From an uncultured Myxococcales bacterium (GTDB lineage Bacteria > Myxococcota_A > UBA9042 > PHBI01 > JAAZYN01), in NCBI GenBank assembly GCA_964478315.1, contig CAYZID010000001.1:14619-78618 (forward strand): a DNA stretch of 64,000 nucleotides. Direction: 5' to 3'. Under the pieces are notes generated by a model that was not told the origin of the DNA, did not search any database, and saw only the letters and a list, made by a program, of their open reading frames with translations. The position numbers and the translations under genes were made by a program. This document shows, in pieces, positions 8,944-50,455 of the stretch (within the stretch, counting starts at the first letter, position 1; each line of letters starts with the position of its first letter).

Positions 8944-10911
8944 TCAGTTGGACTTCACGCCCCAGAAGGTGGCGTCGATCTGCGTCTCGACGCTCCCGAG
9001 CTTGAGGTCCACCTTCCACGTGCAGGGCAGGGCCTTGGAGCCGAAGGTGTCCACGACCATGTCGCTGTCGATGTCGTAGAAGGTGCAGGTGGGCTCGGTG
9101 CCGAGCTGGAAGGCGTCGCCGGTGGAGGTGTCGAGGCCCACGAGCTGCTGCCGCAGGAAGTCGGCGCCCGTGGTCACCAGGAGCTCGCAGCCGCTCTCCG
9201 CCACCGACTGGATGGTGTCGCTGTCGGAGAGGTTCGTGGCGAAGAGCTGGCAGCACGTGGGGTCACCCGTGCTGGGCTGGAGGCACTCCTTGCCGGCGAG
9301 CAGGGCCTGGAGGAACTCCTCGTAAGTGTCGATGACGGGCTCCCCGGGCTCCGTGGGGATGATGATCTTCAGGAGCTGGTGCTCGATGATGTAGTTGAGC
9401 AGGGCGCCGTACTTGAGGTTCAGCGGGTGCTTGTAGATCGTCAGGTTCCAGAACTCGGAGACGTTCGCCTCGAAGCTCCCCAGCACGGCGTCCTCCTGGA
9501 TGGCCGCCGTGGAGAAGTTCATCTTCCCGCAGCTATCGTCCGTGGGTTGGCAGTTGGCGTCCACGAGCCACTTGACGACGACCGTGTGCCAGTTTTCCTC
9601 GGTCTGCGTGGCCTTCCAGTGGCCCGTCTCGTCGGGTTCGGACTTGAAGGTGAAGGTCGCCAGGATCTCGAAGTCCTGGATCATGTCGGCCAGGCTCTTG
9701 CCGCCGTTGAGGATGTCGCCCCAGACGCTGTCCTTGGAGTAGTTCTGGATGAGGTTGTCGATGATGGTCACGGCCATCTGCCCCACGGTGGTCAGGCCGT
9801 TGTCGATGTCGGGGTTCGTGGGATCGCTGAAGATGTAGCCGCACAGGTCGGTGAGGGTACCGATGTTCTGGGACGAGCCCAGGTCGCACATGAGCTTCAA
9901 GATGCCGCCCGTGGGGCTCTGGAAGATGTCGAGGATCGTGTTCACCCAAGGCTGGATGGACTCGGGGAGCGCCGACACGAAGTCGAAGTGGCTCGTGACC
10001 TCGTAGGAGCCCGCGTAGAGGGGCGGCCGGTCCAAGAGGTCGATGGTGACGCTGGACGAGTAGCCGTACTCGATGTCCACGGAGTCGCAGCCCCAGGCGA
10101 GCACGGCGTTGTTCTCGTTCACCGAGAAGGCGAGGACCGTGTAGGTCTGGGGGGTGTCCGTCTCCAGGCCCGGGAACTCGGTGAACTTCACCGTCTGGCT
10201 CAGGCTCGTGAGGGGGCTCTGCTGGTTGGCCGTGGCGTCGCTGTAGAGCGAGGAGATGTCGCTGCAGTCGGGCTTGCCCTGGTCGTTCTGGCGGTAGAGG
10301 CGCACGGTGTACTGCGTCGCCGGCCACTGCCCAGCGTACTTGCCGATGACCGTGAGCGGCACCTGGCCCTTGGGCGCGATGGTCACGTCGAAGCCAATGG
10401 GCGCCACGGAGGAGTCGGACACCGCCGCCTTGACCGTGAAGCCGCCCAGGAGCTGCTTGACGACCTGCACGTCCACCGCGGCGATGCCCTCGGCGTTCGT
10501 GTAGGCGCTGAGCGCGCTGAGCTTGCCGATGCCGTTGGGGTCGTCCTCGATGGCGAAGAAGACCACCTGCCCGGCGATGGGCTCGCCGTCGGCCGTGTAG
10601 CGGACCTCCAGGGTGCGCGAGCCGGTGAAGCTCAAGAACACGCTGCACACGTCCACGTCTTCGCCCTGACACGAGACGTCGTCGTCGCCCACGTCCATGA
10701 CGAACTCCAGGCGCTTGACCGCCTCGGGCGGGATCGTCGTGTCCGGGCCCGCGTCCTCCACGGGCTGCGCGTCCGCGCCGCCGTCACCGCCGGGCGTGTC
10801 GGCGAAGCCCGCCCCGATGTCGTCGACCGTCACGCGGGTGATCTCATCCCCACACCCCGCGACCCCCAACATCCCCGCCAGCGCGACCGCTGCCACCAAG
10901 TGTGTACGCAT
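8944..10911 (-). CDS. large secreted lipoprotein, unknown function
   Basis: ATG at 10911 gives MRTHLVAAVALAGMLGVAGCG (lipobox). Protein-like composition, whereas the opposite-strand 686-aa ORF is a V/D/G/E/L/H-rich antisense artefact. Confidence 0.55.
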   Translation of the reverse strand: MRTHLVAAVALAGMLGVAGCGDEITRVTVDDIGAGFADTPGGDGGADAQPVEDAGPDTTIPPEAVKRLEFVMDVGDDDVSCQGEDVDVCSVFLSFTGSRTLEVRYTADGEPIAGQVVFFAIEDDPNGIGKLSALSAYTNAEGIAAVDVQVVKQLLGGFTVKAAVSDSSVAPIGFDVTIAPKGQVPLTVIGKYAGQWPATQYTVRLYRQNDQGKPDCSDISSLYSDATANQQSPLTSLSQTVKFTEFPGLETDTPQTYTVLAFSVNENNAVLAWGCDSVDIEYGYSSSVTIDLLDRPPLYAGSYEVTSHFDFVSALPESIQPWVNTILDIFQSPTGGILKLMCDLGSSQNIGTLTDLCGYIFSDPTNPDIDNGLTTVGQMAVTIIDNLIQNYSKDSVWGDILNGGKSLADMIQDFEILATFTFKSEPDETGHWKATQTEENWHTVVVKWLVDANCQPTDDSCGKMNFSTAAIQEDAVLGSFEANVSEFWNLTIYKHPLNLKYGALLNYIIEHQLLKIIIPTEPGEPVIDTYEEFLQALLAGKECLQPSTGDPTCCQLFATNLSDSDTIQSVAESGCELLVTTGADFLRQQLVGLDTSTGDAFQLGTEPTCTFYDIDSDMVVDTFGSKALPCTWKVDLKLGSVETQIDATFWGVKSN

Positions 10912-11132: not shown

Positions 11133-12257
11133 TCAGGGGCCGCTCGGCGTGTGGCGCAGGTAGCGGTCGATGTTCGCCTCGTGCTCGGCGCGCGTGGCCG
11201 CGAAGGCGTGGCGGCCCGTCCCGTCGCGGCGAGCCACGAAGTAGAGCAGGTCGTGGCGCTCGGGCTGCATGGCCCCCTCGATCGCCGCCGCCGAGGGCGC
11301 GCAGATGGGCCCCGGCGGGAGCCCGTCGTGGGCGTAGGTGTTGTAGGGGTTCGAGGCGTCCTTTCGCTCGGTGGGTGTGGGGCTGCGGCCCACGCGGTCC
11401 GGGCGGTACATGAGGGTGGGATCCGTCTCGAACCGCATGCCCCGCTCCATGCGGTTGTAGAACACGCCCGCGATGCGCGGCGCCTCGGCGGCCACGCGCA
11501 TCTCCTCTTGGACCAGGCTCGCCAACACCAGCAGGTCGCGGTCCGCGAGCCCGTAGCGCGCGCGGAGCGCCGCGCGGTCGGCCCGGTGTCGCTCCGCCAG
11601 CCGCCGCCAGCGCCGGACGAAGGTCTCGGCCAGCAGGCGCAGCGTCTCGCGCGTGGGCGTCCCCACCGCCAGGCGGAACGTGTCGGCGGCTAAGACGCCC
11701 TCCAGGTAGGTCTGGGGCACGCGGTCCGGGCGCGGGGCCCGCGGCGGCCCCACGAGGTCCGCGAGGAGCCTCGCGTCCGCGCTCCCAGCCGGGAGCAGCC
11801 CCAGGGCCGCCCGGCGGTCCGCCGCCAGTGCCAACACCTCCGCGCGCGTGCCTACCCCGGCGCGCTCCACCCGGTCCGCGAGCTGCCAGAGGGCCTCGCC
11901 GGGTGGCAGCATGAGGTCCACCTGCCCGCTCGTCGGGGGGCGCAGCAGCGCGGCGGCGATGTCGAGGGAGTGGGCGTCCCCGGGCAGCTCGTAGACCCCG
12001 GGTTGAAGCGCGGCGAAGGCCCCCTCGCGCTGGAGCACCTGCCGCAGCACCCAGGGGTGCGGGGCGAGCCCCGCCCGCTCCAGCGCCGCGACCACGGCCG
12101 CCGGTCCGTCGCCCCGCCGCACCGTGACGGACACGGTGGACGGGTTGCCGCCGGGCCGGTCGAACACCATCCACACCCCCGCCGCGCCGCCCGCGACGAC
12201 GAAGGCCAGCGCGCTCCACAACGCCCAGCGCCACGGGCTCCGGCCGCGCCCCCCCAC
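11133..12257 (-). CDS. mltG: endolytic murein transglycosylase MltG (YceG-like)
   Basis: N-terminal TM anchor. Conserved YceG motifs (FYNRMERGMRFETDPTLMY; NPYNTYAHDGLPPGPICAPSAAAIEGA). Adjacent to ruvX as in many bacteria. Confidence 0.8.
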   Translation of the reverse strand: MGGRGRSPWRWALWSALAFVVAGGAAGVWMVFDRPGGNPSTVSVTVRRGDGPAAVVAALERAGLAPHPWVLRQVLQREGAFAALQPGVYELPGDAHSLDIAAALLRPPTSGQVDLMLPPGEALWQLADRVERAGVGTRAEVLALAADRRAALGLLPAGSADARLLADLVGPPRAPRPDRVPQTYLEGVLAADTFRLAVGTPTRETLRLLAETFVRRWRRLAERHRADRAALRARYGLADRDLLVLASLVQEEMRVAAEAPRIAGVFYNRMERGMRFETDPTLMYRPDRVGRSPTPTERKDASNPYNTYAHDGLPPGPICAPSAAAIEGAMQPERHDLLYFVARRDGTGRHAFAATRAEHEANIDRYLRHTPSGP

Positions 12258-29444: not shown

Positions 29445-29516
29445 GCCGACATAGCTCAGCGGTAGAGCAGCTGATTCGTAATCAGCAGGTCGGCGGTTCA
29501 AATCCGCCTGTCGGCT
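29445..29516 (+). tRNA. tRNA-Thr (anticodon CGT)
   Basis: Cloverleaf read by eye: acceptor GCCGACA/TGTCGGC, anticodon stem GCTGA/TCAGC with loop TTCGTAA, T-arm GGCGG-TTCAAAT-CCGCC. CCA is not encoded (followed by TACC). Confidence 0.8.
29473..29516 (+). repeat. attL core: 44-bp segment of the tRNA-Thr 3' half, identical to 50456-50499
   Basis: Exact 44/44 identity with the attR copy, read directly from both sites. Confidence 0.8.
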
Positions 29517-29541: not shown

Positions 29542-29565
29542 TGACACCCACGCTGACACCCACGC
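29542..29565 (+). repeat. two tandem copies of TGACACCCACGC next to attL (candidate integrase arm-type sites)
   Basis: Perfect 12-bp x2 repeat 26 bp after the tRNA 3' end. The same 11-mer occurs at 50380-50390 near attR. Confidence 0.6.
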
Positions 29566-29587
29566 CAGCCCCCCCCTTGGGGGGCGG

Positions 29588-29854
29588 CTAGATCAAGTCG
29601 GCAGGTGGGCGAGGAAGGGCAGTGCGAACTTCCTCGTACGTCCATGAAGCCCCGCTCGGGCCCTCCACGAGGGCCCCGAGTCCCCGGAGCTGCTCGACGC
29701 ACAGGGGCTCGGGGCCTCGGAACCCCACCACGGCGATGCCACCCACCACGCGGATGGTCTCCGGCGCCATGGCGTCGGTGTCCTTCACGACGTCGGCCAG
29801 CATCTCGTCGTCCAGCATGCCGATGCGGAACCGGATGTAGCGTTGCTCACCCAT
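29588..29854 (-). CDS. phage-associated hypothetical protein
   Basis: Last gene of the tightly packed minus-strand fibre operon. 1-nt gap to the upstream gene. Confidence 0.5.
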   Translation of the reverse strand: MGEQRYIRFRIGMLDDEMLADVVKDTDAMAPETIRVVGGIAVVGFRGPEPLCVEQLRGLGALVEGPSGASWTYEEVRTALPRPPADLI

Positions 29855-35142: not shown

Positions 35143-35895
35143 CTAGGCCGCAGGCGCTGGCGCGTGGCTTGGGCCATCCGACCACATCGTCGGCATCTGA
35201 TCCCAGGTCCTGCCGTCGAGAAGGCGGCCTGCCTTCTTCTTGTTGCGCCCACCCCACTGCTTGAAGAAGAACGGGACGTCGGCTTCACGACACTGCCTGA
35301 GGATGTCCACGACCCACGCGGGATCCATCGGCCTTGGCCTGCGCCCGGACTCACCACCAACAATCACCCAGTGGATCCCGTCCAGAGGGAGCTTACGGAT
35401 CGGCCCAAGCAGGGGCTCAACCGACAGGAACCGGACGCTTGCACCCTCGACAGCCTGGAGGTCGGCAACTCGTGATGCACGCTTCTGATCTTCCACAGAG
35501 ACGCCCACCCAGACGTTGGTTGGCCACGGGAGTTCCTTCGCCAACGATCGCAGTCGGCCAGACCTCTTCGTGAGCACCTGGAACGTGTGCTGGTGCGCGC
35601 GGACCATGACGTCGAAGACCCGCTTGATGTAGCTGTCCGGAACCTCCTCATGGAAGAGGTCACTCATGGAGTTCACGAAGACGAGCCGTGGCTTGCGCCA
35701 CCTGAGAGGAAGCTCCAAGGCTTCGGGCACCAGCCGCAAGTCGAACCCCTGCTCGTAGGCGCTCCCCGGCACACCGCGGAACCGCTCAGCGAAGGCTTCC
35801 GCGTAGCAGTACTTGCACCCCGGCGAAACCTTCGTGCAACCGCGAACAGGGTTCCACGTCGCGTCCGTCCACTCGATGTCCGATTTGGCCGACAT
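35143..35895 (-). CDS. DUF5131 (phage Gp37/Gp68, three-Cys-motif) family protein
   Basis: N-terminal IEWTDATWNPVRGCTKVSPGCKYCYAE, C-x7-C-x2-C, as remembered for the Gp37/Gp68 family. ATG at 35895 with GGAGG upstream. AT-richer than the flanks. Confidence 0.6.
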   Translation of the reverse strand: MSAKSDIEWTDATWNPVRGCTKVSPGCKYCYAEAFAERFRGVPGSAYEQGFDLRLVPEALELPLRWRKPRLVFVNSMSDLFHEEVPDSYIKRVFDVMVRAHQHTFQVLTKRSGRLRSLAKELPWPTNVWVGVSVEDQKRASRVADLQAVEGASVRFLSVEPLLGPIRKLPLDGIHWVIVGGESGRRPRPMDPAWVVDILRQCREADVPFFFKQWGGRNKKKAGRLLDGRTWDQMPTMWSDGPSHAPAPAA

Positions 35896-35950
35896 GCTGC
35901 CTCCCGCGCTTTCCCCTAGAATCGTAGCTGCCAACTGAACGAAAGTCCAG

Positions 35951-37075
35951 TTATTGTGGCGGGAAGGACACCAAAGTGCGATCCGCCATCGTTGGAGTCC
36001 CATTCCTCTTCGGCCTGCTGCCGGCCGGGGGGGCGCACGTGACCTCGCCGGCCGCCTCCATCTTCACCAGAACGGCCTTGTAGTTCTTCTTGACGTACGG
36101 CGTGCCGACGTGGTGTTCGCGGATGATGTCATCAACCATGACGGTCCTGCCAGCGAACTTGCTGGCAAGCACTCGACGAAGGTGATCCGTTGACCGCGAG
36201 TACGGGAACAGCAGGCTCAGTTGCGGGTCATCAACAGGCGTGTACTCGAACCTGGCAACGCCATCCTCAGACTTCTCGCTTTCTCGGTACATGATGTCCT
36301 TCATGATCGAGTAGCCAAGAACATGCTTGGACGCGAAGAACAGGTAGTGGCTGGTTCGCTTGCCCCCGTCCGCGCGGAAGCGGAACGGGAGAACGTACTC
36401 CGCATTGCCGCGAAGCAGCCTCTCGCCGAAGGCGTTCACGATGACGTACTCCCGTGCCGTTGGCTCAAGACCCTTGACCCTTGCACGGAGAGCATCCGCT
36501 TCATCCTCACCGAATAGTGCGTTCATGTGTTGTGCAACCAGCTCGTTGCCGAGCCCCATGTTGATGCGGTTGTAGTTGAAGAAGAAGATGAGGTCCGTTC
36601 CCCAGTCCTTCAACGCCGCGTCGAGCAGTCGCAACGACAGCCCCTTGTACCCCCATGGGTCAAAGAAGACGAGGCTCTTCGGGATGGCCGTCTCTTCCAA
36701 CCACCGAGTCATCTCTTCGCCGACTTCGAAGTTGCCAACCAACGGTTCATGCTTCAGCTGCTTGATCCCTGGGAGTTCTTCGATGGCAGCACAAAGTGAG
36801 TCGGCGCTTGCCTGGTCGGCGTCGTTGAAGATGGCCCAAAGGGTCTCGCGCAGCTTTGGGTCCTGCAGTGCCATCTCCAGCACAAGGATTGGTGTGGACT
36901 TCGAACCGTCCTTGTACCGGCCTGGCCCCGCGAACAGGTCGATGTACCCGATCACAGGTGCGCCCACCTTCACCAACATCACCCTTGCCCATGCATCGAA
37001 GTACTTGCTGACGATCGCAGCCTTGACCGCGGACGCACCAGTCTGCTCATCAAAGAAGCTTGTCCCCATGCTCAT
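35951..37075 (-). CDS. TcmP-like (three-Cys-motif partner) protein; N-terminal SAM-MTase-like motif I (IDLFAGPG)
   Basis: Immediately upstream of the DUF5131 gene on the same strand, the arrangement described for the TcmP family. YIDLFAGPGRY resembles methyltransferase motif I. Assignment from memory of the family definition, not from a search. Confidence 0.45.
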   Translation of the reverse strand: MSMGTSFFDEQTGASAVKAAIVSKYFDAWARVMLVKVGAPVIGYIDLFAGPGRYKDGSKSTPILVLEMALQDPKLRETLWAIFNDADQASADSLCAAIEELPGIKQLKHEPLVGNFEVGEEMTRWLEETAIPKSLVFFDPWGYKGLSLRLLDAALKDWGTDLIFFFNYNRINMGLGNELVAQHMNALFGEDEADALRARVKGLEPTAREYVIVNAFGERLLRGNAEYVLPFRFRADGGKRTSHYLFFASKHVLGYSIMKDIMYRESEKSEDGVARFEYTPVDDPQLSLLFPYSRSTDHLRRVLASKFAGRTVMVDDIIREHHVGTPYVKKNYKAVLVKMEAAGEVTCAPPAGSRPKRNGTPTMADRTLVSFPPQ

Positions 37076-38352: not shown

Positions 38353-38379
38353 GACTACGAGTAGTATCCTAATACATGG

Positions 38380-38408
38380 TTGCTGCGCAAGCAACGCTGC
38401 CTTATCTT
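38380..38408 (+). promoter_or_regulatory. candidate promoter TTGCTG-17 bp-TATCTT driving a leaderless RHH gene; -35 lies within inverted repeat TTGCT-GCGCA-AGCAA
   Basis: The -10 ends 6 nt before the ATG at 38415 and there is no SD. Inverted repeat at 38380-38394. Confidence 0.4.
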
Positions 38409-38414
38409 CATGTC

Positions 38415-38603
38415 ATGGCGAAGCGCACCGGAGAAAAGACCGAGCTGATCCAGGCACACGTCACCCCCGAGCAGTTCAAGAAGCTCGACGACTGGGCGTG
38501 GTCGCACCGGATGACGCGCGCGGAGGCCATCCGCCAGCTCCTGAAGGTGGGGATGGCCTACTGGGAGGAGGCGTCCGCGCGGGGCGAGGAAGGCGCGGGA
38601 TGA
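38415..38603 (+). CDS. ribbon-helix-helix (CopG/Arc-like) DNA-binding protein
   Basis: 62 aa. Predicted beta strand (TELIQAHVTPE) followed by two helices (QFKKLDDWAWSHRMTRAEAIRQLLKVG). Divergent from the BRO-N gene. Confidence 0.55.
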   Translation: MAKRTGEKTELIQAHVTPEQFKKLDDWAWSHRMTRAEAIRQLLKVGMAYWEEASARGEEGAG

Positions 38604-38924: not shown

Positions 38925-39362
38925 CTGCCGGCCGATCATGTCGTTGCGACGACGTTCTACGCATCACGCGGCCCACTCCCTGCCCCTGAGCTTCTTCGGG
39001 CCTACGAGATGGCTGTACCAGGCTTGGCCGAGCGCATCGTCATGCACATGGAGGGTGAGAGGGACCACAGGTTCGAGATGGATCGGGCCGTGCTCAAGAT
39101 GGAGCGGCTCGGGCAATACCTTGCGGCCGGGCTCGCCATGGCTGGGATCGCTGGCGGTGTGACCTTCGCAGCCCTGGGCGCCCCATGGGCCGGGGCAGTT
39201 GTTGGCGTCATCGTCCCGCTCTCTGTTCTCTTGCGCGGGGTGTTCAAGGTGCGCCACGGGGACAGCGGGCTTGAACTGGACACGCGGGCTCAGAGCCCAC
39301 CGGCTGCGCCGGAGGACACGAACGAGAGAGGTCCGCAAGCCACAACGACCGACGACGGCTGA
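38925..39362 (+). CDS. DUF2335-like membrane protein (start codon uncertain)
   Basis: Conserved-looking GPLPAPELLRAYEMAVPGLAERIVMHMEGERDHRFEM followed by two TM helices. No in-frame ATG/GTG/TTG between the upstream stop (38872) and this motif. 38925 is an in-frame CTG after GAGGTAGGA. Next ATG is at 39009. Confidence 0.4.
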   Translation: MPADHVVATTFYASRGPLPAPELLRAYEMAVPGLAERIVMHMEGERDHRFEMDRAVLKMERLGQYLAAGLAMAGIAGGVTFAALGAPWAGAVVGVIVPLSVLLRGVFKVRHGDSGLELDTRAQSPPAAPEDTNERGPQATTTDDG

Positions 39363-39412
39363 CATCCTCGCCCTCCGCTGCTACCGTCGTCGTGACCAGC
39401 GGAGGTGCCACG

Positions 39413-40075
39413 ATGATGCGAGCTGTTCTCATGACGATCTTGTTGCTGCTCCTGCCCCTCCCCACGGCGTCCGCGAGGTCGCTGTGCGGCGAACTCGACG
39501 CCATGCCGTCGGACCTGGACGCGACGACGTGGACGGCCTACGGCTGCCTCAGCCGGAGCGACGCGGGCGACTACTGGGATCAGTGCTTGAAGCGCAAGGA
39601 CTACACGCGCAAGCGCGGTGGCGGTTGCCCAGGTTCGCAGCGGTGCTGCCCCGGTGACGCCGTCTTCGCGGCGAAGATGAGGGAGCGGGAGCAGGCCGTT
39701 CGGGACGAGCAAGCGCGGAAGCGCTTGGAGGCCGCGGCCGTGGACGCGGCAGAGTTGGGCGAGGACCACGGCTCGGGGGCGTCAGCCTTCGCGGTGCTGT
39801 ACGCGGTCTTTCTGTTCGGCGGCCCGGCGTTGTTCTTCGGCCTCATGGCACTCGTGCTCGGGCTCTTCCTGCGCGGTGGAGGGGCTGAAGGGGTCGCAGG
39901 GGCCGTGCTCGGGTCCGTGGCTGGGTGGATGGTCGTCTTCGCCGCGTCCGGCGGGTGGGCTGCGATGTTGCTCGGCTACGCCATCGTCGCTCCAACAACG
40001 TTCATCGGCGCCGTCATCGGCCTCGTCATCGGCGTCAAGAAGGCGCGGGCGAGAGAAGCGCTGCTGGGGCCGTAG
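39413..40075 (+). CDS. membrane protein with signal peptide, Cys-rich extracytoplasmic domain and C-terminal TM helices
   Basis: MMRAVLMTILLLLLPLPTASA signal. 7 Cys in the first 90 aa. Hydrophobic C-terminal 100 aa. Confidence 0.5.
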   Translation: MMRAVLMTILLLLLPLPTASARSLCGELDAMPSDLDATTWTAYGCLSRSDAGDYWDQCLKRKDYTRKRGGGCPGSQRCCPGDAVFAAKMREREQAVRDEQARKRLEAAAVDAAELGEDHGSGASAFAVLYAVFLFGGPALFFGLMALVLGLFLRGGGAEGVAGAVLGSVAGWMVVFAASGGWAAMLLGYAIVAPTTFIGAVIGLVIGVKKARAREALLGP

Positions 40076-40080
40076 GCGAG

Positions 40081-41271
40081 CTAGCCGTTGTCGGAACCGT
40101 CGTCATCGGTCTCGTCGGAGTGGCCAAAGCACCTCTCCATGAGTTCCCAGCCGCCGGCCGTCTCCGACCACATGGACCTTGGCCACGCGTAGAGCACTCG
40201 CGCACCTGGTCCGATGATCCTGAACGCCATCACCTTGGTGGTAACGCCGCGGAGCTTCACGCGCTGCCGCAGCGGGAACCGCAGCAGCTTCCTCATCCGC
40301 GCTGGGATCGCTTCCACGGTTCTTGTGGCCTGCCCTTCGACGCGAAGGATCGCCTGGAGAACCAGGTCTTCCGCGGCCTTCCGGATTGCTTCTGCCTCGT
40401 CTTCTCCAGCATCCACATAGAAGGACCGCCTCGTTCCGCGCACGTAGTAGCGGTGGTTGCTGTTTCCAAGCAATGACAGAGCCTTGCCCGGCTGACCAAC
40501 AACCATGAACACCTCGTCTGCTGTGTTCAGCTCATCGCATGCTGGCCCGCCAACATCCGGCTCCGAGCAAGGGCGACTTGCGCCCCATGGCGATCCGACC
40601 CAACCATTCCACGTCACCGGGAACCTGTGCCGCTTGAAGTCGTACTCTCCAAGAGGAACCGTCATGGTCGAACAGACCATCTTGCCCTTCGCCTTCTTCC
40701 TGAAGGCCTTGCGAGCCCTGATGCATCGTCGGTACTCGAACTCGTTGAAGTGCTCACGGGACTTGTAGACGTCGCAGTTCCTGAACCAGTTGCCGAGGAA
40801 GTCCCCATACGGTGGGGGCTCCATGGTGTTGGCCAGGAGCTTCTCGAACGGGCCCCATGAGGCGCTCCTCTCGTTCCTACGCTCTGCGGCCTCTCCTGCG
40901 GCCTTCCCCTCCTCTTCCTCGCCATCAGGCGTAGTGGCCGGCTCTTGGCACCTGCGGTTGGCCTCGTCAAGCTCGGCTAGGGCCTTCTCATTCCTGCGCA
41001 TCTCCTCCACCAACGCGTCCTTGCTGGCCTTGAGCTGCTTGAGGCATCCATTGCGCTCGTCGCGAACGACCTGCTCTCGGACGCTTGTCTCCTTCTGGGC
41101 CGTCGTGCACGACCGCAGTTCTTCTTGTACACGCTTGAGTTCCTCCGCTCGTTCGTCGCGCTCCCTCACGACCCGCAAGTAGGTCTCACTGGAGACGCAG
41201 CTCGGCAACCACAGTGCGGACGCAACCACCACGACGGCCCAAGCTACAACACGAAGCCAACCATCACGCAT
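40081..41271 (-). CDS. secreted coiled-coil protein with Cys-containing C-terminal domain, unknown function
   Basis: ATG at 41271 (MRDGWLRVVAWAVVVVASALWLPSC). Charged coiled-coil region, then globular C-terminal half. AT-richer codon usage than the backbone. Confidence 0.5.
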   Translation of the reverse strand: MRDGWLRVVAWAVVVVASALWLPSCVSSETYLRVVRERDERAEELKRVQEELRSCTTAQKETSVREQVVRDERNGCLKQLKASKDALVEEMRRNEKALAELDEANRRCQEPATTPDGEEEEGKAAGEAAERRNERSASWGPFEKLLANTMEPPPYGDFLGNWFRNCDVYKSREHFNEFEYRRCIRARKAFRKKAKGKMVCSTMTVPLGEYDFKRHRFPVTWNGWVGSPWGASRPCSEPDVGGPACDELNTADEVFMVVGQPGKALSLLGNSNHRYYVRGTRRSFYVDAGEDEAEAIRKAAEDLVLQAILRVEGQATRTVEAIPARMRKLLRFPLRQRVKLRGVTTKVMAFRIIGPGARVLYAWPRSMWSETAGGWELMERCFGHSDETDDDGSDNG

Positions 41272-41424
41272 CGCGACCTCCCAGGGAGCACAACAGGTCG
41301 GTCGGATGGTACGGGGCTTGGCGACCAGCATGCAAGCACGGAGACCACCCAGGAACACTGGCTTCCGTTGTGGCAGGCGCCAACTCATGAAGAGGCTCTC
41401 TGGAGCGGCGCAAGGCGAGGCCGA

Positions 41425-42561
41425 CTACGGCCGCCCGAACCCAGTCAGGTAGAAGCTCTGGTCCGTGAGGACGCCGTCCTTCGTGAGGTGCACCCGGAAG
41501 GTCGTGTAGTTGGTGAGCGGGTCGTAGTTGAGCACGGTCACGCACGCCGCGAAGGTGGCGGCGGTGGGGGTATAGAAGTCCGCCGCGTCGGAGGCCGGCG
41601 TCACGTGGACGGTGTTCAGCACGCCCTCCACGACGATCTCGACCACGCCCGCGCTCGGCGAGCTGTAGCTCTTGATGTTGCCCTTGTGGTCCGACGCGCT
41701 GTAGCCCGGGGAGCCCCCGGTGTAGTTCATCCGCCCCGACGTGATGACCGTCACGTCGTAGAGGGTGTCCTGGATGTTGGTGATCTCCGCCTCGGCGTTG
41801 GACAGGCCGGTCTCCAGGTCGGTGACCGCGGTGTCCAGCTCCGTGAGGTCGCGCGCGGGGGCGCCGAACCACGTCTTCGTTCCCGCCTTGTCCTGGATGG
41901 TCGCCAGGGCCGCGATGATGGTCGTCAGCGCCTGGGACACGCCGAGCTGCGGGTACATCCCCATGATGGCCCTGACGCGCGTCTCCGCCCCCCCCAGCCC
42001 GTCGTCGTTGTAGTCGAAGGGGCTCAGCATCACGATCGCCGGCACGTTCCCGTTCCAGCTCGTGACGCGCGCGAACTGGAACCACCCGGCGCTCCCGTCG
42101 GGCTCCGTCACGCCCACCCCGAAGACGACCCGCTGGCGCGACACCGTCTTCGGTGACGGGCTCATGGCCACCTCGGTCCCGGTCGCCGCGTCCCACGCCT
42201 TGCGCAGCTCCTGGTCCGTGTCGAAGCCCACCGCACGAGCCCACAGGTAGGGGGTCTGCCCGACCTGGCCGGAGAGGTCCACCGTGGAGATCTGCCCCGA
42301 GGCCGCGGGGTCGTGACGCACGACGGTCCCCGTGGGGATCTTCCCATCGGTTCCCGCCGGCGCCGCGGTGAACAGCAGCCCAGCCCCGATGGACACCGCG
42401 GCGATGTTCGTGGTGTCCAAGGCGCACCCCGACAGCACGCCAGCTCCTTCCCCGACGAGACCACCGAGCATGCGGCCCAGGTACTCGTCCACGAAGGTCT
42501 GGATGCGGTCGAGATCCACCAGGTCGAGGCGCTCGTCGTCGTACAGCTTCACGAAGTCCAT
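41425..42561 (-). CDS. phage tail/baseplate-associated protein (gpI/tail-fibre-like, downstream of J)
   Basis: ATG at 42561 with AGGAG upstream. Sits directly after the baseplate J gene. Confidence 0.5.
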   Translation of the reverse strand: MDFVKLYDDERLDLVDLDRIQTFVDEYLGRMLGGLVGEGAGVLSGCALDTTNIAAVSIGAGLLFTAAPAGTDGKIPTGTVVRHDPAASGQISTVDLSGQVGQTPYLWARAVGFDTDQELRKAWDAATGTEVAMSPSPKTVSRQRVVFGVGVTEPDGSAGWFQFARVTSWNGNVPAIVMLSPFDYNDDGLGGAETRVRAIMGMYPQLGVSQALTTIIAALATIQDKAGTKTWFGAPARDLTELDTAVTDLETGLSNAEAEITNIQDTLYDVTVITSGRMNYTGGSPGYSASDHKGNIKSYSSPSAGVVEIVVEGVLNTVHVTPASDAADFYTPTAATFAACVTVLNYDPLTNYTTFRVHLTKDGVLTDQSFYLTGFGRP

Positions 42562-42614
42562 GTCGGTCTCCTGGGCCCACGGGGCCCTGGTCGGAGGGTG
42601 GGGCTGCTGGGGTG

Positions 42615-44048
42615 CTAGGTGACGTCCACCAGGTCTGGCTTGGTGCGGAGCACGGTCCGCAGGTCTGCGGGTTCCACGTCGCCTGTGGGGCTCTCGATGG
42701 TCGCGAGGCGCAGCCCGTCCACGCGCTTCAGAGCGCAGCGCACGTCGCTGAGGACCATCGCCTGGCCCGGCCCGAGGGACGCCAGGATGGCAACCAGCTC
42801 GTCCTTGACCGTCGTGCGCAGGGTGGAGACGTCCACCCCGGTCCCATCCGCCACGATGCGGACCGTGAACGACACCCACTGCACCGTGGGGGCGACCACG
42901 CGCACGCGCGTCCCGGCCGCCCGGTAGCCTGGGGAGCCGAAGATGTCGGACGGGTCGCCCTCGATGGCCGCCTGGAGCTCGCGGAGCACGCCGGTGTAGA
43001 CCTGGTAGTTGCGGATCCTCCAGTGGTCCCCCGGCGAGAACAGACCCGCCTCGGGCCGCGGGTAGAGGAGCCCGCGCTCCTCCTGGATGAGCCACGGGGC
43101 GTCCTGACCCTGCGCGAAGGTGAGCTGCAGCCAGTTCGCGCCGTCCCCGCGCTCCACCGTGTAGGTGGGCCCCACCATGGGGGCCTCGAAGTAGAGCGAG
43201 CGGGCCCCGTTGGCTGGGATGACCCCGGTCACCTCCGCGCCATCGCGGGTGAACCCGACCATCCCGGAGCCGTCGTCGACGACCAGCTCGGCGTAGCCCG
43301 GGCGGAAGGGGTCCTCGAGCAACGCAGCGTGCCGCAGCCGCACGCCGTCGGAGCCCTGGAACGTGCGGGCGAGGTACAGCAGGGCCGCACCCTGGGACCG
43401 CGCCAGGCCCGACAGGAACAGAAGCGCCCGCTGGCGCAGGGCGTCGTCGCTCTCCCTGTCCGTCCCGCCGGCGACGGGCGCCACGTTGGTCACCGATACG
43501 ACGCCATCCGGCATCGCCACCGGGATGGTGAGCGTCCCGCTGGCCGCGTTGCCGCGGGTGCCGCGCGTCGTGCAGACCACCTGGATGGGTGGGGCTGAGC
43601 TGTTGGGCGGGTAGAAGGCCTCCCCTACCTGCATGGTGACGGTCTGGGTCGTCACGTAGACCAGGGTCGCGTCGTCCTTGTGGGCCACCCTGGAGCCCGC
43701 TGGGATCTCGAGCGCGGTCGACGTGTCCGTGCGTTCGACGCGGAGCACGGGGCCCGCGGCGGGGGCCGCACCGAGCCGCGGCGTGAAGCCTGGCGGCATG
43801 TCCATCAGCCGGGCGTCCAGGTCTTTGCCCTTGGCATCCAACCAGAAGGCGTCGCGGATGGCGCCAAGGCGCTCCTCGACTAGCTCGAACTCCTCGGCGA
43901 TGACTGCGAGCACGTGGCGCAGTGAGGAGCTCTCCGTCAGGTCGACCACGGATGGGCGCATACGTGCGACGAAGCGTGCGCCCAAGCCCTGCTCGATCTC
44001 CTCGCGCGTCCGGGGCTCGAACTCCCCAGGCTGGTTCGACGTGGTCAT
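42615..44048 (-). CDS. baseplate J-like protein
   Basis: Length and position between W-like and I-like genes. Sequence features consistent with the Baseplate_J family. Confidence 0.6.
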   Translation of the reverse strand: MTTSNQPGEFEPRTREEIEQGLGARFVARMRPSVVDLTESSSLRHVLAVIAEEFELVEERLGAIRDAFWLDAKGKDLDARLMDMPPGFTPRLGAAPAAGPVLRVERTDTSTALEIPAGSRVAHKDDATLVYVTTQTVTMQVGEAFYPPNSSAPPIQVVCTTRGTRGNAASGTLTIPVAMPDGVVSVTNVAPVAGGTDRESDDALRQRALLFLSGLARSQGAALLYLARTFQGSDGVRLRHAALLEDPFRPGYAELVVDDGSGMVGFTRDGAEVTGVIPANGARSLYFEAPMVGPTYTVERGDGANWLQLTFAQGQDAPWLIQEERGLLYPRPEAGLFSPGDHWRIRNYQVYTGVLRELQAAIEGDPSDIFGSPGYRAAGTRVRVVAPTVQWVSFTVRIVADGTGVDVSTLRTTVKDELVAILASLGPGQAMVLSDVRCALKRVDGLRLATIESPTGDVEPADLRTVLRTKPDLVDVT

Positions 44049-44057
44049 GTGGGACTC

Positions 44058-45641
44058 CTATCTGTTGCCCGGCTTGGGGACGGGCGCCATGAGCTGGATG
44101 CGTCCGCCGTGATGGGCCACGAGGTGGAGGTCGGCCGTGATGGCGTCTCCCTCGTCGGTGACCTCGATGCGTTCGACCTTGGCGATCCTCGGGTCACGGA
44201 GCGCTTGCCGGCGCGCGTGCGCCGCAACAAGAGCCGCCGCCTCGTTCCCGATGTCCTCACCCACGAGCTTGGGCAGCCCGAGGGCGGGGAAGGGGCCGCA
44301 CTCGCCCTGGACGGTCGCGAAGCGGGTCGTGATCCCCTGGCGCAGGTTGGCGGGGCCGCGCACCCACCGAACATCAGTGGCCTCTGCGCCGTCGAGCGCC
44401 CAGTCCCCGTCCTTAAGGAGGACATCGCTACCGTAGGGGTCGCCGTCGCCGGACATCTCGGCGCCATCTCCCTGCCCGCCACCGCCAGGGAGGGAAGGAA
44501 CCAAGATCGTGATGCCGGGGCGGAACGGGCTCCCGTCGTTCATCATCGTGGCCGAGGTCATCCCGTTGAGGTCCGCGATGAGCTTCCACCAATCCCCGCT
44601 CCCAAGAAGCTCCTCCGCGATGTCGCGCAGGGTGACACCGGCGGGCACGATGTAGGAGACGACCGCGGCGTCCGGCGGCAGCTCGGCCGGAGGCGCCATC
44701 CACGACGCGAACGGGACGTCCCCTCCCTCGCCACGACCCGCGCCAGCGACGCCAAGAAGCTCGTCGGCCCGACGCTGCGTGTCACCGATCGGCGCGAGGA
44801 GGCGCATGATCGTATCGCGGCTGGCGCCCCGGTGCGCCTGTGGCAGGCTCTCCCACTTCGCGATGATGGACGCGCGGGAGTTGGCGGCGACCCTGGAGAT
44901 CTCCGCGGCCATGGCGAACGGGAAGGTCACGACGCCGCGCAGCTCGTCCATGGCATCTAGGACCGCCAGCACAGTTCGCCCAAGGGCGCGGATGGGCTCC
45001 TTGAACTCCTCCAGCGAGTAGCGGAGGTCGCTGAGGAGCAACTCGGTCTGCGCCAAGTAGGCGTTCGCGGAGTTGATGAAGGCCGTCGCCGCGCGGGCCC
45101 TCGTAACAGCCGACGCGAGGAGCCCGGTCGGAAGCACCTCCTCGGTCGCGTAGGCGCGCAGGGACAGCTCCCAGCCGGTCGTGAAGTTGTGCTGGTCCAC
45201 CGACTTGGACCTGCGGATGCTGCTCGGCTCCACGAGGTATGCGTGCCCGTAGTCCAGGGCGAGGAAGACCATATGGATGCGACGCGGCTGCGTGCGCGCC
45301 GCAGCGCCACTAGCCACGACTTGCCGTCCTTCAGCAGCTTGCGAGTCCTCCTGGTAGCGCCCGAGGAACTCCTCGAAGGCCTCCACGTGCTCCTTGCCAG
45401 TGATGAAAGCTTCGCCGCCGTTCGCCGTGCGTGCCGCTCGCGGCCCGTAGCCCGAGGTTCCGCGCAGCAGGATGCGCGTCTCGCGCACGCCGGTGTGTTC
45501 CCGCTCCGGCTCCGCGCCAAGCGTCCAGGTGAGCTGCGACGCCTCGTCCCGCGACACGTCGTAGGAGGACACGGGGGGCAGGATGAAGGCTCGGTCCAGC
45601 CGATCGTCCTCGTAGACCTGCAACATGAACCGGACCTTCAT
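44058..45641 (-). CDS. baseplate protein with LysM-like segment and C-terminal GPW/gp25-like domain
   Basis: LysM-like YIVPAGVTLRDIAEELLGSGDWWKLIADLNG. gp25/W-like C-terminus (RFATVQGECGPFPALGLPKLVGE...KVERIEVTDEGDAITADLHLV). Confidence 0.6.
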   Translation of the reverse strand: MKVRFMLQVYEDDRLDRAFILPPVSSYDVSRDEASQLTWTLGAEPEREHTGVRETRILLRGTSGYGPRAARTANGGEAFITGKEHVEAFEEFLGRYQEDSQAAEGRQVVASGAAARTQPRRIHMVFLALDYGHAYLVEPSSIRRSKSVDQHNFTTGWELSLRAYATEEVLPTGLLASAVTRARAATAFINSANAYLAQTELLLSDLRYSLEEFKEPIRALGRTVLAVLDAMDELRGVVTFPFAMAAEISRVAANSRASIIAKWESLPQAHRGASRDTIMRLLAPIGDTQRRADELLGVAGAGRGEGGDVPFASWMAPPAELPPDAAVVSYIVPAGVTLRDIAEELLGSGDWWKLIADLNGMTSATMMNDGSPFRPGITILVPSLPGGGGQGDGAEMSGDGDPYGSDVLLKDGDWALDGAEATDVRWVRGPANLRQGITTRFATVQGECGPFPALGLPKLVGEDIGNEAAALVAAHARRQALRDPRIAKVERIEVTDEGDAITADLHLVAHHGGRIQLMAPVPKPGNR

Positions 45642-46348
45642 CCGTCAGCCTCCGAGCGCTCCGAGACATGCACGGCCGCGGCGCGGATGGCGTCGGGCAC
45701 GAGGGTGGGGACCTGCCCGAAGAAGGGCGTGATGGCCTTGTGCGTCGTGGGGTCAACGGCCAGTGCTTGGATCCACGTATCGACCGCTGCCAGGTAGTCG
45801 TTGATGGCCTTCAGGTGGTCCAACAACGGGCCCGCCAGGGGCAGTCGCTCCGTTGCCTCCCCGCCCCGTGAGACACGGAGCACGCCGCCATCAGCGAGCT
45901 GGACCCGTACGGTGGCGTCCCCCGCCTCCCTGGCATCCAGCGTGATGGCGCCGTGCTCGTCGACGATGAGTCGCGCCCCTCCGTTCACGCGGGCGAAGTC
46001 GGCCTTCCCGATGACGCCCGGGTGGTCCTCCTGCTGGTCCACCACCGGGGCGTCCTCAACCACCTCGCCCCCGTCAGCGGGGAGCATCCCGATGGCGAGC
46101 GGCTTCACGTAGGGACCGCGCAGTACGAGGAGCACCTGCCCTCGGTCGCGTGCGAGCTCGCCATGGCCGCTCTCGGGTGGCTCCACGGGCTCTACCCCCC
46201 ACGTGCGCTTGCCGCCGCCGACCGTTGCGAGCGGGACCTGCGTCCAGAACGCACCGTCCTCGGTTGAGCAGTCGACAACGACGTGCCCGTCGAGCACGTA
46301 GACGTCGTCCACGAGGGCGACCATGGCGCCTGGCGCGTCGAGGCTCAT
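45638..46348 (-). CDS. phage baseplate protein (gpV/spike-like)
   Basis: Size and position. 4-nt overlaps on both sides. Confidence 0.45.
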   Translation of the reverse strand: MSLDAPGAMVALVDDVYVLDGHVVVDCSTEDGAFWTQVPLATVGGGKRTWGVEPVEPPESGHGELARDRGQVLLVLRGPYVKPLAIGMLPADGGEVVEDAPVVDQQEDHPGVIGKADFARVNGGARLIVDEHGAITLDAREAGDATVRVQLADGGVLRVSRGGEATERLPLAGPLLDHLKAINDYLAAVDTWIQALAVDPTTHKAITPFFGQVPTLVPDAIRAAAVHVSERSEADG

Positions 46349-48141
46349 GCCGCCACCCCGCCCAGGCCGCGGGCGCCGCTCAGCTCCCGAGCACGTTCAT
46401 CGAACAACCCGCGGCTGAACTGGACCGTGGTCGTCGCCGTGATGGTCGGGCCGTTGGCGGTGAAGGTGTGCGTGACCGACTCCACGTAGGCCGTCAGCTC
46501 CCCGCCTGGCACGCCTGCTGGCATCTGCACACGGATGGGCTCACCGTGGCGAAGAGGGCGCCCTTGGAGCCCGGCCGGGCTGTACTTGAGCGTCAGCGTC
46601 CCCGACTCGAAGCGCTCGCGCCCCATGTGCCACTGAGCTGCCTGCGCCGCGATGGTTCGGATGAACCGCGCAAGGGGCTGGTTCTTCCCGTCGTAGGGTG
46701 GGAAGAACGGCCAGTTGGGCTGGTAGAGCCTGGCGCCCCGCCAGTCCATGGGGCCCGTCGCGCGCCCTGGGGCCGTCTTCTGCACGATGGGGAGTTGGAG
46801 CTCCTCCATGAACCGCAGCACCGACTGCGCCTGCATGGGGAGGTCGTCGGTCACCATCGTGACCGCGGCAGCGTCATCTGCCGTCCACGTCACCGCCATG
46901 ACCTTGTCGCGGGGTATGACCGGGGCGGTGCTTGCGTCCCAGGTCACCTCCGTGAAGAGGTCCTCGTCGATGTCGAGCTGAGCCGCCCCTCGGACGGTGC
47001 TGGTGTCACCGACATGGAATCCGGCACCTTGGCCCCGGACGTAGTCCTTCAGCGGGGAGACGCGCCAGGGGCGCATCCGATAGAGGAGCACGGGGTTGCG
47101 CCCAAGTACCTTCGCGAGCCCCGATGCGAGCCGGACGGGGGGGCTGCGGCGAAGCGCCCTCGCACGGTCGAGGTCACGCTTCACCATGGCCTCTTCGAGC
47201 ACATTGCGATCCTGAAGCCCGAGTGCTTTGTAGAGCCGCAGCCCGGCCTTCGTGAACGTGCTCGTGTCAACCCGCCCTAGCGCCTCCGCGCTGAGGTAGC
47301 CGCGCAGGTCGCCGGGGGCTTCTTCCGGCACGCCTGGCGCCTCCAGGGACGGGAACATCTCCATCATCCCTGGGTCGCCCATGAACGAGGCGAAGAGCAT
47401 GCCCGTGACGCTGTTCCCGCCCGGTGTCAACTGCGACAAGCCGTTGAGCGTCCAACCTGGAACCCGCTCTACAACACGGTCAGGAGCGAACGCCTTGCGG
47501 GTGTTGGGGTCATGGACAACCTCCGCGTGCCTGCCAAGCAGCAGGCCGTTGCCCGTCCCATCGCCGCCGCCGAGGGTCTCGGGGAGGGTCACGACGGCCA
47601 ACTCGCGCCACAACTCGCGCAGGGCCTCCCCGATGTCCCGCCGCATGAAGGCCGTCTCGATGCGGTTCACGCCGTGCAGCTCCACCGCTGCCACCGTGGA
47701 CCTGACCAGGGCCTCGATGACGTTCCGCCACGAGTTCCACCCGAAGGCGGTCCCGGCCCTGTCCTCGTAGTCCGCTCCCCCACGAGCCCCCGAGTAGGTC
47801 ACGTAGAGCTGCGCCAGGGTGAGCGGCTGGAGCCAGGAGCCAGCGGACACGTGCACGTAGTCGGTGAAGATGCCGCCGCGCCCGTCCGCCTTGATGCCTC
47901 CGCTGCGCCGCGTGACGTACCCGAGCGCCACGGCCGTCTTTCCGAGCCGTACGAGGAGCCAATCGGCCGGCCTGGGGGTGTGGGTGGCGAGGAGGTGGCG
48001 CGGTAGCTTGAAGACGGCCTCGATGCCGCCCCACGGTGGGGACACCTGGTCGGTCCACGACACGGACACGCAATGGTCCGTCAGGTCGGTGGGGGCCGCG
48101 CCGTGGCGGTGCAGCTCGATCGTGGGGACGCGCGCCGACAT
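46345..48141 (-). CDS. phage tail/baseplate-hub-associated protein (DNA-circularisation/gpD-like position)
   Basis: 598 aa between the tape-measure fragment and the baseplate genes. No specific motif recognised. Confidence 0.45.
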   Translation of the reverse strand: MSARVPTIELHRHGAAPTDLTDHCVSVSWTDQVSPPWGGIEAVFKLPRHLLATHTPRPADWLLVRLGKTAVALGYVTRRSGGIKADGRGGIFTDYVHVSAGSWLQPLTLAQLYVTYSGARGGADYEDRAGTAFGWNSWRNVIEALVRSTVAAVELHGVNRIETAFMRRDIGEALRELWRELAVVTLPETLGGGDGTGNGLLLGRHAEVVHDPNTRKAFAPDRVVERVPGWTLNGLSQLTPGGNSVTGMLFASFMGDPGMMEMFPSLEAPGVPEEAPGDLRGYLSAEALGRVDTSTFTKAGLRLYKALGLQDRNVLEEAMVKRDLDRARALRRSPPVRLASGLAKVLGRNPVLLYRMRPWRVSPLKDYVRGQGAGFHVGDTSTVRGAAQLDIDEDLFTEVTWDASTAPVIPRDKVMAVTWTADDAAAVTMVTDDLPMQAQSVLRFMEELQLPIVQKTAPGRATGPMDWRGARLYQPNWPFFPPYDGKNQPLARFIRTIAAQAAQWHMGRERFESGTLTLKYSPAGLQGRPLRHGEPIRVQMPAGVPGGELTAYVESVTHTFTANGPTITATTTVQFSRGLFDERARELSGARGLGGVAA

Positions 48142-48144
48142 GAG

Positions 48145-49227
48145 CTAGTCCCTCACGTGCCCACCGACGTGCAGGAGCTTCTTGCCGTCGCTGTCCTTGC
48201 TGCCTGGCGTCGGTGTCTTCTTGTGCGAGTCCTCGCTCGCCGCAATGGTCTTCTTGATTGCGTCATCCATGGCGCCGAAAGAACCACCAAGGAGACTCGC
48301 GACCTTGAGGATCGCCTTCGTGAGCATCTTGGCCCCGTCGCCAACCTTGTTCATCGTGTCCTTCAGTTCCTCAACGGTTGCAATCAGATCCTTCGCATCC
48401 TTGTTGCTCATGGTGTTGAGCCGCGCCTGCTGCGCGGCAGCCACACGACCCATCAGCCCGGCAGCTCGTCCAGACGGAAGCGACGGGAAGCTCGGTTCCT
48501 TCAGCCTCCCAGCCAGTCCAGTTGCCATCCCGCTCGTGGCCCCCATCGACGCGAAGCCCAGTGCCGCCGTACGCCCACCGAACATCTCCACCATGGCCTT
48601 GCGGGTGATGTTCGGGTCGCCCTGCATCTTCTCGATGGCCTTGACCATCCCGAGGACGCCCCCGCCCGACTGAGCGGCCCTGGCGAGAAGCGCCGAGCGC
48701 GCCAGCCCGCCAAACGGCCCGAGCAACGTGCTTCTCGCATCCGCTTGGGCCCGCGAGAGGCTCGCCGAGACCGAGCCGAGGCGCATCCCCTGCCCCTTGA
48801 AGGGCCCACCCGTGGCCTGCATCCGCGCGGCGAACTCCTCCATGCGCGAGACGTTGACGTTCAGCCCCTGTCTCCCCATCTCCGCCGTGTTGGCGGCGAT
48901 GGCTTGGAGGAACTGATCCACGCGTGCCCCGCGCAGCCCTTCCTTCATCGCTAGGGAGACCATCCTGACGATGTTCCCTCCCGTGCGCGTTCCGCCAACA
49001 CCCGGCGCAAGTTGCCCGCGGTAGGCCGCGATGGCGCCGAGGCCCACACCGCGCGTCATGAGGCGCAGGAAGTTCGGGTGGCTACCAGACAAGAAGCCGA
49101 CCTGTTGCCCGAAGGCCTGCGAGAGTGCAGCCGACTCGTCCGGCATGTAGCCGTAGCCGGCACGAGAGGCGCCAGGACCGGACAAGGTCGCCATACCTCG
49201 CATCCTCTGGATGCGTGCCTTCTGCAT
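48145..49227 (-). CDS. tail tape-measure-like protein, C-terminal portion only (probably truncated)
   Basis: Gly/Ala/Met-rich low-complexity TMP-like sequence. The track ORF runs to 49437 but would overlap the divergent integrase 5' end. An internal ATG at 49227 is used. Only about 360 aa, too short for a myovirus TMP. Confidence 0.45.
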   Translation of the reverse strand: MQKARIQRMRGMATLSGPGASRAGYGYMPDESAALSQAFGQQVGFLSGSHPNFLRLMTRGVGLGAIAAYRGQLAPGVGGTRTGGNIVRMVSLAMKEGLRGARVDQFLQAIAANTAEMGRQGLNVNVSRMEEFAARMQATGGPFKGQGMRLGSVSASLSRAQADARSTLLGPFGGLARSALLARAAQSGGGVLGMVKAIEKMQGDPNITRKAMVEMFGGRTAALGFASMGATSGMATGLAGRLKEPSFPSLPSGRAAGLMGRVAAAQQARLNTMSNKDAKDLIATVEELKDTMNKVGDGAKMLTKAILKVASLLGGSFGAMDDAIKKTIAASEDSHKKTPTPGSKDSDGKKLLHVGGHVRD

Positions 49228-49330
49228 GGCGAGTTGGTATCGCTGCGCAAGGGCTGCCCCACCGACTGCGGCCAAAGCGCCAAGTACTGGAACGGAGGCA
49301 CCGAGTCCTCTCCCAAGACCGGCAATCCAG

Positions 49331-50281: not shown

Positions 50282-50379
50282 CCACAGCCTGCAACCACCG
50301 AGAACTTCAGAGAAGTGCCCCGCCGTGGTGTCAGCATGCGGACCGAATAGCCCTGTGAGCACGGGGTGTTGCCATAACC

Positions 50380-50390
50380 TGACACCCACG
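50380..50390 (+). repeat. third copy of the TGACACCCACG motif, 65 bp before the attR core
   Basis: Read directly. Same orientation as the attL copies. Confidence 0.5.
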
Positions 50391-50455
50391 GCGCCATCAA
50401 GGCAGTGCCGCCAGAACCCAGTGATGGCGGGATGTTGTCACCAAGAGGAGCATCG

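Follow-up and report, generated by a model that had tools for sequence, protein, structure and literature searches.

Probable arm-type integrase sites at the two ends of a prophage-like island in a tRNA-Thr(CGT) gene

In phage lambda, the attP arm sites P1, P2 and P'1-P'3 are read by the N-terminal domain of the integrase, and the arm-binding domains of lambda and Tn916 both have the AP2 fold. The attP of mycobacteriophage L5 has its arm sites in pairs (P1/P2 and P4/P5) and integration is into a tRNA-Gly gene; the 3' end of tRNA genes is likewise the target of P4/SXT-type integrases and of that of the actinomycete element pSAM2. Tandem sites near a core are also known for Xis-type proteins, for example X1/X1.5/X2 of lambda and the sites of L5 gp36. 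Tyrosine recombinases that carry an arm-binding domain ("complex" recombinases) have been classified in six subgroups by Smyshlyaev et al. 2021 (PMC8138268). The arm-binding domains of tyrosine integrases are composed of three strands and one helix, are variable in sequence, and are essential to mobility function (PMC8138268).

The stretch of DNA analysed in this study, referred to below as the window, is 64 kb long and has a G+C content of 70%. Judged from the sequence, the TGACACCCACG words found at both ends of a prophage remnant in the window are very probably accessory (arm) binding sites of its integrase. The best explanation, with a probability of roughly 0.78, is that they are the arm sites of an attP that would have been split by integration, and are now relics in an immobile prophage. 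Sites of this kind are ordinary; the integrase family to which they appear to belong is uncharacterised.

The island and its repeated words

The window contains a tRNA-Thr(CGT) gene at 29445-29516 (+, ARAGORN), whose 3' part, starting at the anticodon stem, serves as the attachment core. A repeat search recovered this core as a 52-nt direct repeat on the plus strand, at 29465-29516 (attL) and, as a tRNA 3' fragment, at 50448-50499 (attR). The two copies are 96% identical, with two mismatches toward the 5' end and full identity over the last 44 nt (29473-29516 and 50456-50499), and the anticodon loop, TTCGTAA, starts at 29475 in the attL core. A hairpin followed by a T-run at 50505-50535, just after the attR core, looks like the original terminator of the tRNA-Thr gene. 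With a complete tRNA gene at one end, a repeat of its 3' part at the other, and an integrase and mobile-element genes in between, the segment 29517-50447 is, as a preliminary description of this DNA had assumed, a prophage-like island at a tRNA 3' end, and the att frame claimed there is real. The same tRNA-Thr(CGT) gene is the insertion site of the elements of related integrases.

The integrated element is 20.9 kb long and its genes were assigned with Pfam, PHROGs, and an ORF filter based on third-codon-position G+C (GC3). It has a baseplate J/wedge gene (42615-44048), a gene for another baseplate protein (44058-45641), and genes for beta-helix and lectin-like fibre proteins, Bro-N, DUF5131, GMT-wHTH, and a tyrosine integrase. 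Because no capsid, portal, or terminase was recognised among the island genes with Pfam and PHROGs, the island of about 21 kb looks like a prophage remnant. A search for a related phage in IMG/VR (with the integrase and with the 23-mer of the tandem) and among GenBank phages found nothing above 33% identity. The GMT-wHTH (PF22560) and DUF5131 genes are paired at 35143-37075 (-), and the element at locus L086, the integrase of which is 56% identical to that of the window, also carries both (1285-3109), which suggests a module common to these elements. A 75-aa ORF at 38376-38603 (+) that adjoins the Bro-N gene has high third-codon-position G+C and by eye resembles a putative ribbon-helix-helix regulator (...TPEQFKKLDDWAWSHRMTRAEAIRQLL...). 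A Logan contig of 21,013 nt (SRR5189949, L176) is 100% identical to window positions 39226-50499 over the part fetched and stops precisely where the att core stops; the spacing of the repeats, 20,983, plus 30 gives its length. These features are compatible with an excised circle, but a break of the de Bruijn graph at the 44-nt repeat predicts them equally well, and the contig is therefore no evidence of excision.

The repeated word is unrelated to the core, which is tRNA sequence, and is present at both attL and attR. Two perfect tandem 12-mers after the attL core and a matching 11-mer 65 nt before the attR core had been described previously, and both are where they were reported. The tandem copies, each TGACACCCACGC, are at 29542-29553 (+) and 29554-29565 (+), which puts them at +67 and +79 relative to the first base of the anticodon loop, with the first beginning 25 nt past the end of the tRNA gene and core. 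They agree at 12/12 positions, and 29542-29565 is the sole period-12 tandem with 12/12 matches in the 64 kb. The single direct copy, TGACACCCACGG, is at 50380-50391 (+), which is -78 relative to the anticodon loop in attR, and agrees with the tandem copies at 11/12 positions; the 11-mer within it (50380-50390) lies 65 nt from the exact core start at 50456, and the end of the 12-mer at 50391 lies 56 nt from the start of the 52-nt repeat at 50448. A candidate inverted site, GCTGACACCAC, is the arm word minus one C and is found at -133; the preliminary description was right that such a fragment exists but placed it at 50326-50336, while it occupies 50325-50335 of the minus strand.

A further exact copy of TGACACCCACGG, at 50062-50073 (+), is missing from the preliminary description. 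It lies inside the integrase gene, where GTT GAC ACC CAC GGC encodes V-D-T-H-G of the conserved H-x-x-R box. At these codons the related loci L001 and L003 read GACACCCACGG, and their arm words are different. The 50062 copy was therefore dropped as a fourth arm site, being explained by coding, and is probably a coincidence with no functional role; the chance of this coincidence a priori is about 0.002, that is, improbable.

In the window, the 12-mer with one mismatch allowed has four matches compared to 0.56 expected from shuffled sequences, and the exact 10-mer TGACACCCAC has four copies compared to about 0.12 expected from base composition, all of them less than 400 nt from an att core. The three copies outside genes are exact and intergenic. 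With one mismatch, the 10-mer has seven matches compared to 4.6 expected, which is no enrichment, so that the exact copies alone count. The preliminary description had proposed the genome-wide frequency of the word as a check on its reading; the counts given here are for the 64 kb of the window. In a metagenome collection, the tandem form is common for unrelated reasons. Metagenome contigs were scanned for TGACACCCACNNTGACACCCAC in search of an unintegrated attP of the window element, and at least 80 loci matched. Among the matches listed (L096-L175), none is the window element, and the tandem word TGACACCCACnnTGACACCCAC belongs mostly to coding repeats (GTG ACA CCC ACT, V-T-P-T linkers) and also to AC-rich microsatellites. 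For this reason the arm word alone is not diagnostic, and its position is. Three of the matches listed (L153, L160, and L118) are non-coding arrays of three to eight copies, which could be iterons or arm sites of other elements. In two more, L097 (2969-3146) and L135 (612-780), a tRNA-Lys gene is followed by a hairpin, two to three tandem copies of TGACACCCAC at a 12-bp period, and then a distant tyrosine integrase gene (27-30% identity) on the opposite strand. The arm word there is identical and has the same orientation to the tRNA, with another integrase lineage and another tRNA; these loci fit the general pattern, and this is not orthology.

Directly 3' of the tandem pair is a G+C-rich hairpin (29567-29590; minus-strand fold of -23 kcal/mol, z = -2.4), which is probably the terminator of the convergent ORF at 29588-29854 (-). 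As the pair lies beyond the 3' end of this ORF and its hairpin and outside any promoter, a role as a promoter operator is unlikely.

Conserved position and variable word in related loci

A protein search found, besides the database copy of the window integrase itself, 38 homologs at 46-64% identity in metagenome assemblies, one of which carries the name of a Phycisphaerales bin. Two homologs were placed by a genome scan in a Myxococcota MAG and another MAG, and no close relative was found in GenBank phages or IMG/VR. Fourteen loci were compared, the window and 13 others from Myxococcota, Phycisphaerales, and unbinned metagenome contigs, with integrases 47-63% identical to that of the window. 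All 13 fetched loci have a tRNA-Thr(CGT) gene or a 3' fragment of it near the integrase.

A tandem of two to three copies with a 12-bp period is found 22-67 nt past the tRNA-Thr 3' end in 14/14 loci. Within 110 nt after the tRNA, the tandem has at least 10/12 matches in 13 of the 14, with L002 at 9/12, compared to a background of 0.028 such tandems per 110-nt segment of the same loci. The automatic scan oriented 12 loci and found at least 10/12 in 11 of them; L081 (12/12) and L092 (11/12) were read by eye. The place is constant across the 14 loci and the word varies with lineage. Quoted as read, which in all loci but the window and L092 is on the integrase strand, opposite to the tRNA, the words are TGACACCCAC in the window, GTGACAGACGC in L092, GTGTCACCCA in L001, GTGGATACCC in L086 and L088, GGGTACCCC in L087, GGCACCCCCC in L085, GCGGCTCCACAT in L081, GGCTACCA in L003, GCGGCAACCAG in L083, GTGACTACCAC in L090, and GTGACATGCA in L093. 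The tandems themselves, likewise quoted as read, consist of identical copies in L081 (twice GCGGCTCCACAT), L083 (twice CGCGGCAACCAG), and L086 (twice GCGTGGATACCC). Those of the other loci are CGTGTCACCCAC/CGTGTCACCCAA in L001, CCGGATACCCCC/TTGGATACCCAG in L002, GTGGCTACCACC/GCGGCTACCAGA in L003, GTGGCACCCCCC/GCGGCACCCCCC in L085, GCGGGTACCCCA/GTGGGTACCCCG in L087, GTGGATACCCCC/GCGGATACCCCA in L088, TGTGACTACCAC/TGCGACTACCAC with a weaker third copy in L090, TGTGACAGACGC/CGTGACAGACGC in L092, CCGTGACATGCA/TCGTGACATGCA in L093, and GTGGGTCCACCA/GTGGGTCCCCCG in L094. In five loci the copies lie at +87 to +88 and +99 to +100, counted from the anticodon loop; at +67 and +79, the pair of the window is 21 nt nearer to the core than those of most relatives.

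The other arm is kept in four loci: the window, L086 (where the attP-like site is complete), L092 (where a 3.4-kb contig holds a complete attP together with the closest homolog, at 63% identity), and L002 (a hybrid junction of two tandem elements). The single direct copy lies at -78 from the anticodon loop in the window, -76 in L086, -75 in L002, and -74 in L092; that of L002 carries the word of its neighbour element, as in L003. An inverted copy is present in three of the four, exact at -120 in L086 and at -119 in L002 and imperfect at -133 in the window, where it is one base short and 13 nt off the position in L086 and L002. By sequence alone, the orientation of the window word relative to those of the relatives is ambiguous, with eight to nine matches either way, the words being quasi-palindromic (GTG...CAC). 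Alignment on the anticodon loop places TGACACCCACGG of the window and GGGTATCCACGG of L086 in the same columns with a common CCACGG end, and because these single copies align by position the relative orientation is settled.

The gene order of the window (integrase, single-copy arm, core, tandem pair) is that of L092, while in most other relatives the integrase is on the side of the tandem pair. An inversion of the island interior between the tandem pair and the inverted copy, which would have explained an integrase at the "wrong" end, was considered and dropped; since the intact attP of L092 has the same order, this order is a lineage trait and no rearrangement is needed. Beyond the integrase in L092, directly after its stop codon (2650-2690), is a second sequence resembling the anticodon arm, CTGCTTTTAATCAGCAGGTCC, with inverted GCGCGC on both sides, which could be left over from an earlier att core or be a decoy for the core.

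The tRNA-Thr(CGT) gene also hosts arrays of different integrative elements, in L087 (about 10860-10895), L094 (about 12060-12095), L081 (5118), and L002 (13360-13575). In L087, three TCCGACCCC repeats with an 11-bp period precede the P4-like integrase (Arm-DNA-bind_3) of the next element, CGAACGCACCC repeats are found upstream of the next ORF in L094, and in L002 the tandem arm of one element is joined to the single and inverted arm of another.

The sites of the window thus lie less than about 150 bp from the crossover, at places kept among relatives, with a word that diverges. A lineage-specific word, a kept position, and copies on both arms are what is expected of the arm-type sites of a heterobivalent tyrosine integrase. 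The earlier reading of the words as arm-type integrase sites, which had been based on the placement of the copies in the window, is supported by the conserved positions in 14/14 loci and the presence of both arms in four.

An integrase without its N-terminal domain

The tyrosine integrase gene of the window is at 49331-50281 (+), transcribed toward the right-hand repeat, and its product consists of core-binding (SAM-like) and catalytic domains only (Pfam PF02899 and PF00589, the latter with E = 1e-18). The database copy of this protein (P0001) has 316 aa. The alignment of the family (A1) has invariant R, K, H-x-x-R, H, and Y columns, and the window protein shares them all, so that it is a tyrosine integrase with a complete catalytic set. 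The full-length relatives all have a conserved stretch of about 70 aa before the SAM-like core-binding domain, with the consensus DDGxY.VR...RWRV.AYY.GHR..T.T..F....DAE.CA..LW.DY. In translations and tblastn comparisons, the window integrase resembles its relatives only from about 49367 on, and this N-terminal domain is absent upstream of it in every frame. The in-frame stretch 49157-49366 is Ala/Pro-rich and unlike the family, and a called gene of 349 aa at 48145-49194 (-) abuts the upstream part of the integrase ORF. The gene therefore looks 5' truncated, its product lacks the N-terminal domain of the family, and no second integrase of the same family is encoded in the 64-kb window. With this simple two-domain layout the resident enzyme presumably cannot read arm words, and since it is without the N-terminal domain the sites are probably not read by it.

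The N-terminal domain of the relatives has no match to a Pfam model, including the Arm-DNA-bind domains, and no sequence match in PDB. An AlphaFold model from a 12-sequence alignment (pLDDT 84.8) has long beta strands followed by a 16-residue helix; Foldseek found no significant match to this model in PDB or BFVD, and hhalign gave the domain a probability of 0.3% against the lambda Int N-terminus, which is not significant. With moderate strength, this is a probable arm-binding domain, and we infer that it would be the binder of the arm words. The term "lambda-type" used previously for the integrase holds for the combination of core and arm sites but not for the family, which differs from that of lambda Int.

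In the integrase genes of three relatives, inverted pairs of the locus's own arm word, 14-16 bp apart, are found in the 3' part or the C-terminal tail, several hundred bp from the core (L086, 10855-10889; L088, about 11193-11222; L094, about 11150-11188). Such pairs could serve as additional distal arm sites or in autoregulation.

Readings of the sites and comparison with known systems

In the favoured reading, the copies of TGACACCCACG(C/G) would be the arm-type sites of the attP of a temperate phage-like element, which integration into the 3' half of tRNA-Thr(CGT) would have split. The phased tandem pair (+67, +79), on the arm that follows the tRNA, would now be at attL, and the direct copy (-78) and the degenerate inverted copy (-133), on the opposite arm, would be at attR beside the integrase gene. 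In a functional family member, the anticodon stem-loop would be the target of the catalytic and core-binding domains; crossover is placed there because this is where the two att copies cease to be identical. With their N-terminal domains, these protomers would also bind the arm words and so link the arms with the core, which would give a directional intasome as in lambda, L5, or P2. Against this reading, the proposed reader of the words, the N-terminal domain, is missing from the integrase of the window; the imperfect and displaced inverted copy, the tandem pair 21 nt closer to the core, and the ambiguous orientation of the words by sequence alone also count against it. Given the loss of this domain and the lack of recognised head genes, what remains are most likely relic sites, of recent date, in an immobile prophage. 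The element is probably a locked-in remnant, its immobility being our inference, and the perfect state of the sites suggests that its decay is recent.

Head-to-tail tandem sites near a core are typical of Xis-type proteins, and HTH_17 proteins (PF12728) are encoded in the related elements L081, L085, L086, and L094; the repeats could be sites for Xis, another recombination directionality factor (RDF), or a small DNA-bending accessory protein, and not for the integrase. This is unlikely, as copies of one word flank the core on either side, some direct and some inverted, while RDF sites are normally on one arm. In addition, the word follows the integrase lineage in every locus, with or without a nearby HTH_17 gene, and no HTH_17 or RDF gene was found among the island ORFs scanned, the small ORFs of which were scanned in part.

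In another reading, the sites would still be in use: the island would be a satellite-like or defective prophage with arm sites read in trans by the full-length integrase of a helper element, or the short integrase would work with a separate arm-binding partner. The sites are intact (tandem 12/12, single copy 11/12) despite the loss of the N-terminal domain, the short integrase keeps all its catalytic residues, and different elements are arrayed at the same tRNA-Thr in L087, L094, L002, and L081. However, the 64-kb window encodes no further integrase of this family, recent truncation alone may account for perfect sites, and the 21,013-nt Logan contig is explained as well by the break of the assembly graph at the repeat. 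Continued use of the sites is distinctly improbable. In its broadest form, this reading would combine a previously undescribed type of arm-binding domain, an unusually rigid attP grammar, and a satellite-like element mobilised or controlled in trans by the full-length integrase of a related element at the same tRNA; the grammar would consist of a pair phased at 12 bp beyond the tRNA, a direct copy near -76, and an inverted copy near -120. The combination as a whole is unlikely.

That a G+C-rich word recurs near att sites by chance and composition, or as a by-product of coding repeats, is hardly credible: the 50062 copy has its explanation in D-T-H-G coding, the metagenomic tandem words often lie in V-T-P-T-type coding repeats and microsatellites, and the one-mismatch 10-mer is not enriched in the window (7 compared to 4.6), but the three non-genic copies are exact, the tandem is the only one of its kind in the 64 kb, and the same layout recurs with different words in 14/14 loci against a background of 0.028 per segment, in loci that are not copies of one element (integrases 47-63% identical, arm words different).

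Read as arm sites of a split attP, the words would outline the attP of a tyrosine-integrase family that is uncharacterised and occurs in Myxococcota, Phycisphaerales, and related metagenome bins. Such a map would have four parts (the tRNA-Thr(CGT) anticodon stem-loop core, the phased tandem pair, the direct copy, and the inverted copy) and could help to delimit prophages and islands in poorly studied high-G+C genomes. It would also be a defined starting point for work on the unannotated N-terminal domain of the family as a candidate DNA-binding module. For the window itself, the 21-kb island would be a decayed prophage with a truncated integrase, which matters for annotation and not beyond.

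Among described systems, the AB-domain recombinases (PMC8138268) share with the relatives the layout of arm-binding (AB), core-binding (CB), and catalytic (CAT) domains, a predicted AB domain of beta strands and one helix, and the link to mobile elements; the window protein differs in having a two-domain "simple" layout through loss of the AB domain. As in lambda, short words unrelated to the core are found on both arms, with a closely phased tandem set on one arm and more distant copies on its counterpart, transcription of the integrase gene runs toward the att site, and the integrase of the relatives has an N-terminal domain of beta sheet plus helix before the core-binding and catalytic domains. 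Unlike in lambda, this domain is without a detectable sequence relation to lambda Int, the 3' half of a tRNA gene serves as core in place of the attB of lambda, the tandem has a strict 12-bp period with only three to four sites in all, and the resident integrase is without the N-terminal domain. In comparison with L5, P4, SXT, and pSAM2, the integrase is of a different lineage without an Arm-DNA-bind Pfam domain, and the arm words and their spacing differ; but as in L5 and pSAM2, the tRNA 3' end is restored on integration, arm sites are adjacent pairs, and a prophage is found at a tRNA gene of a high-G+C host.
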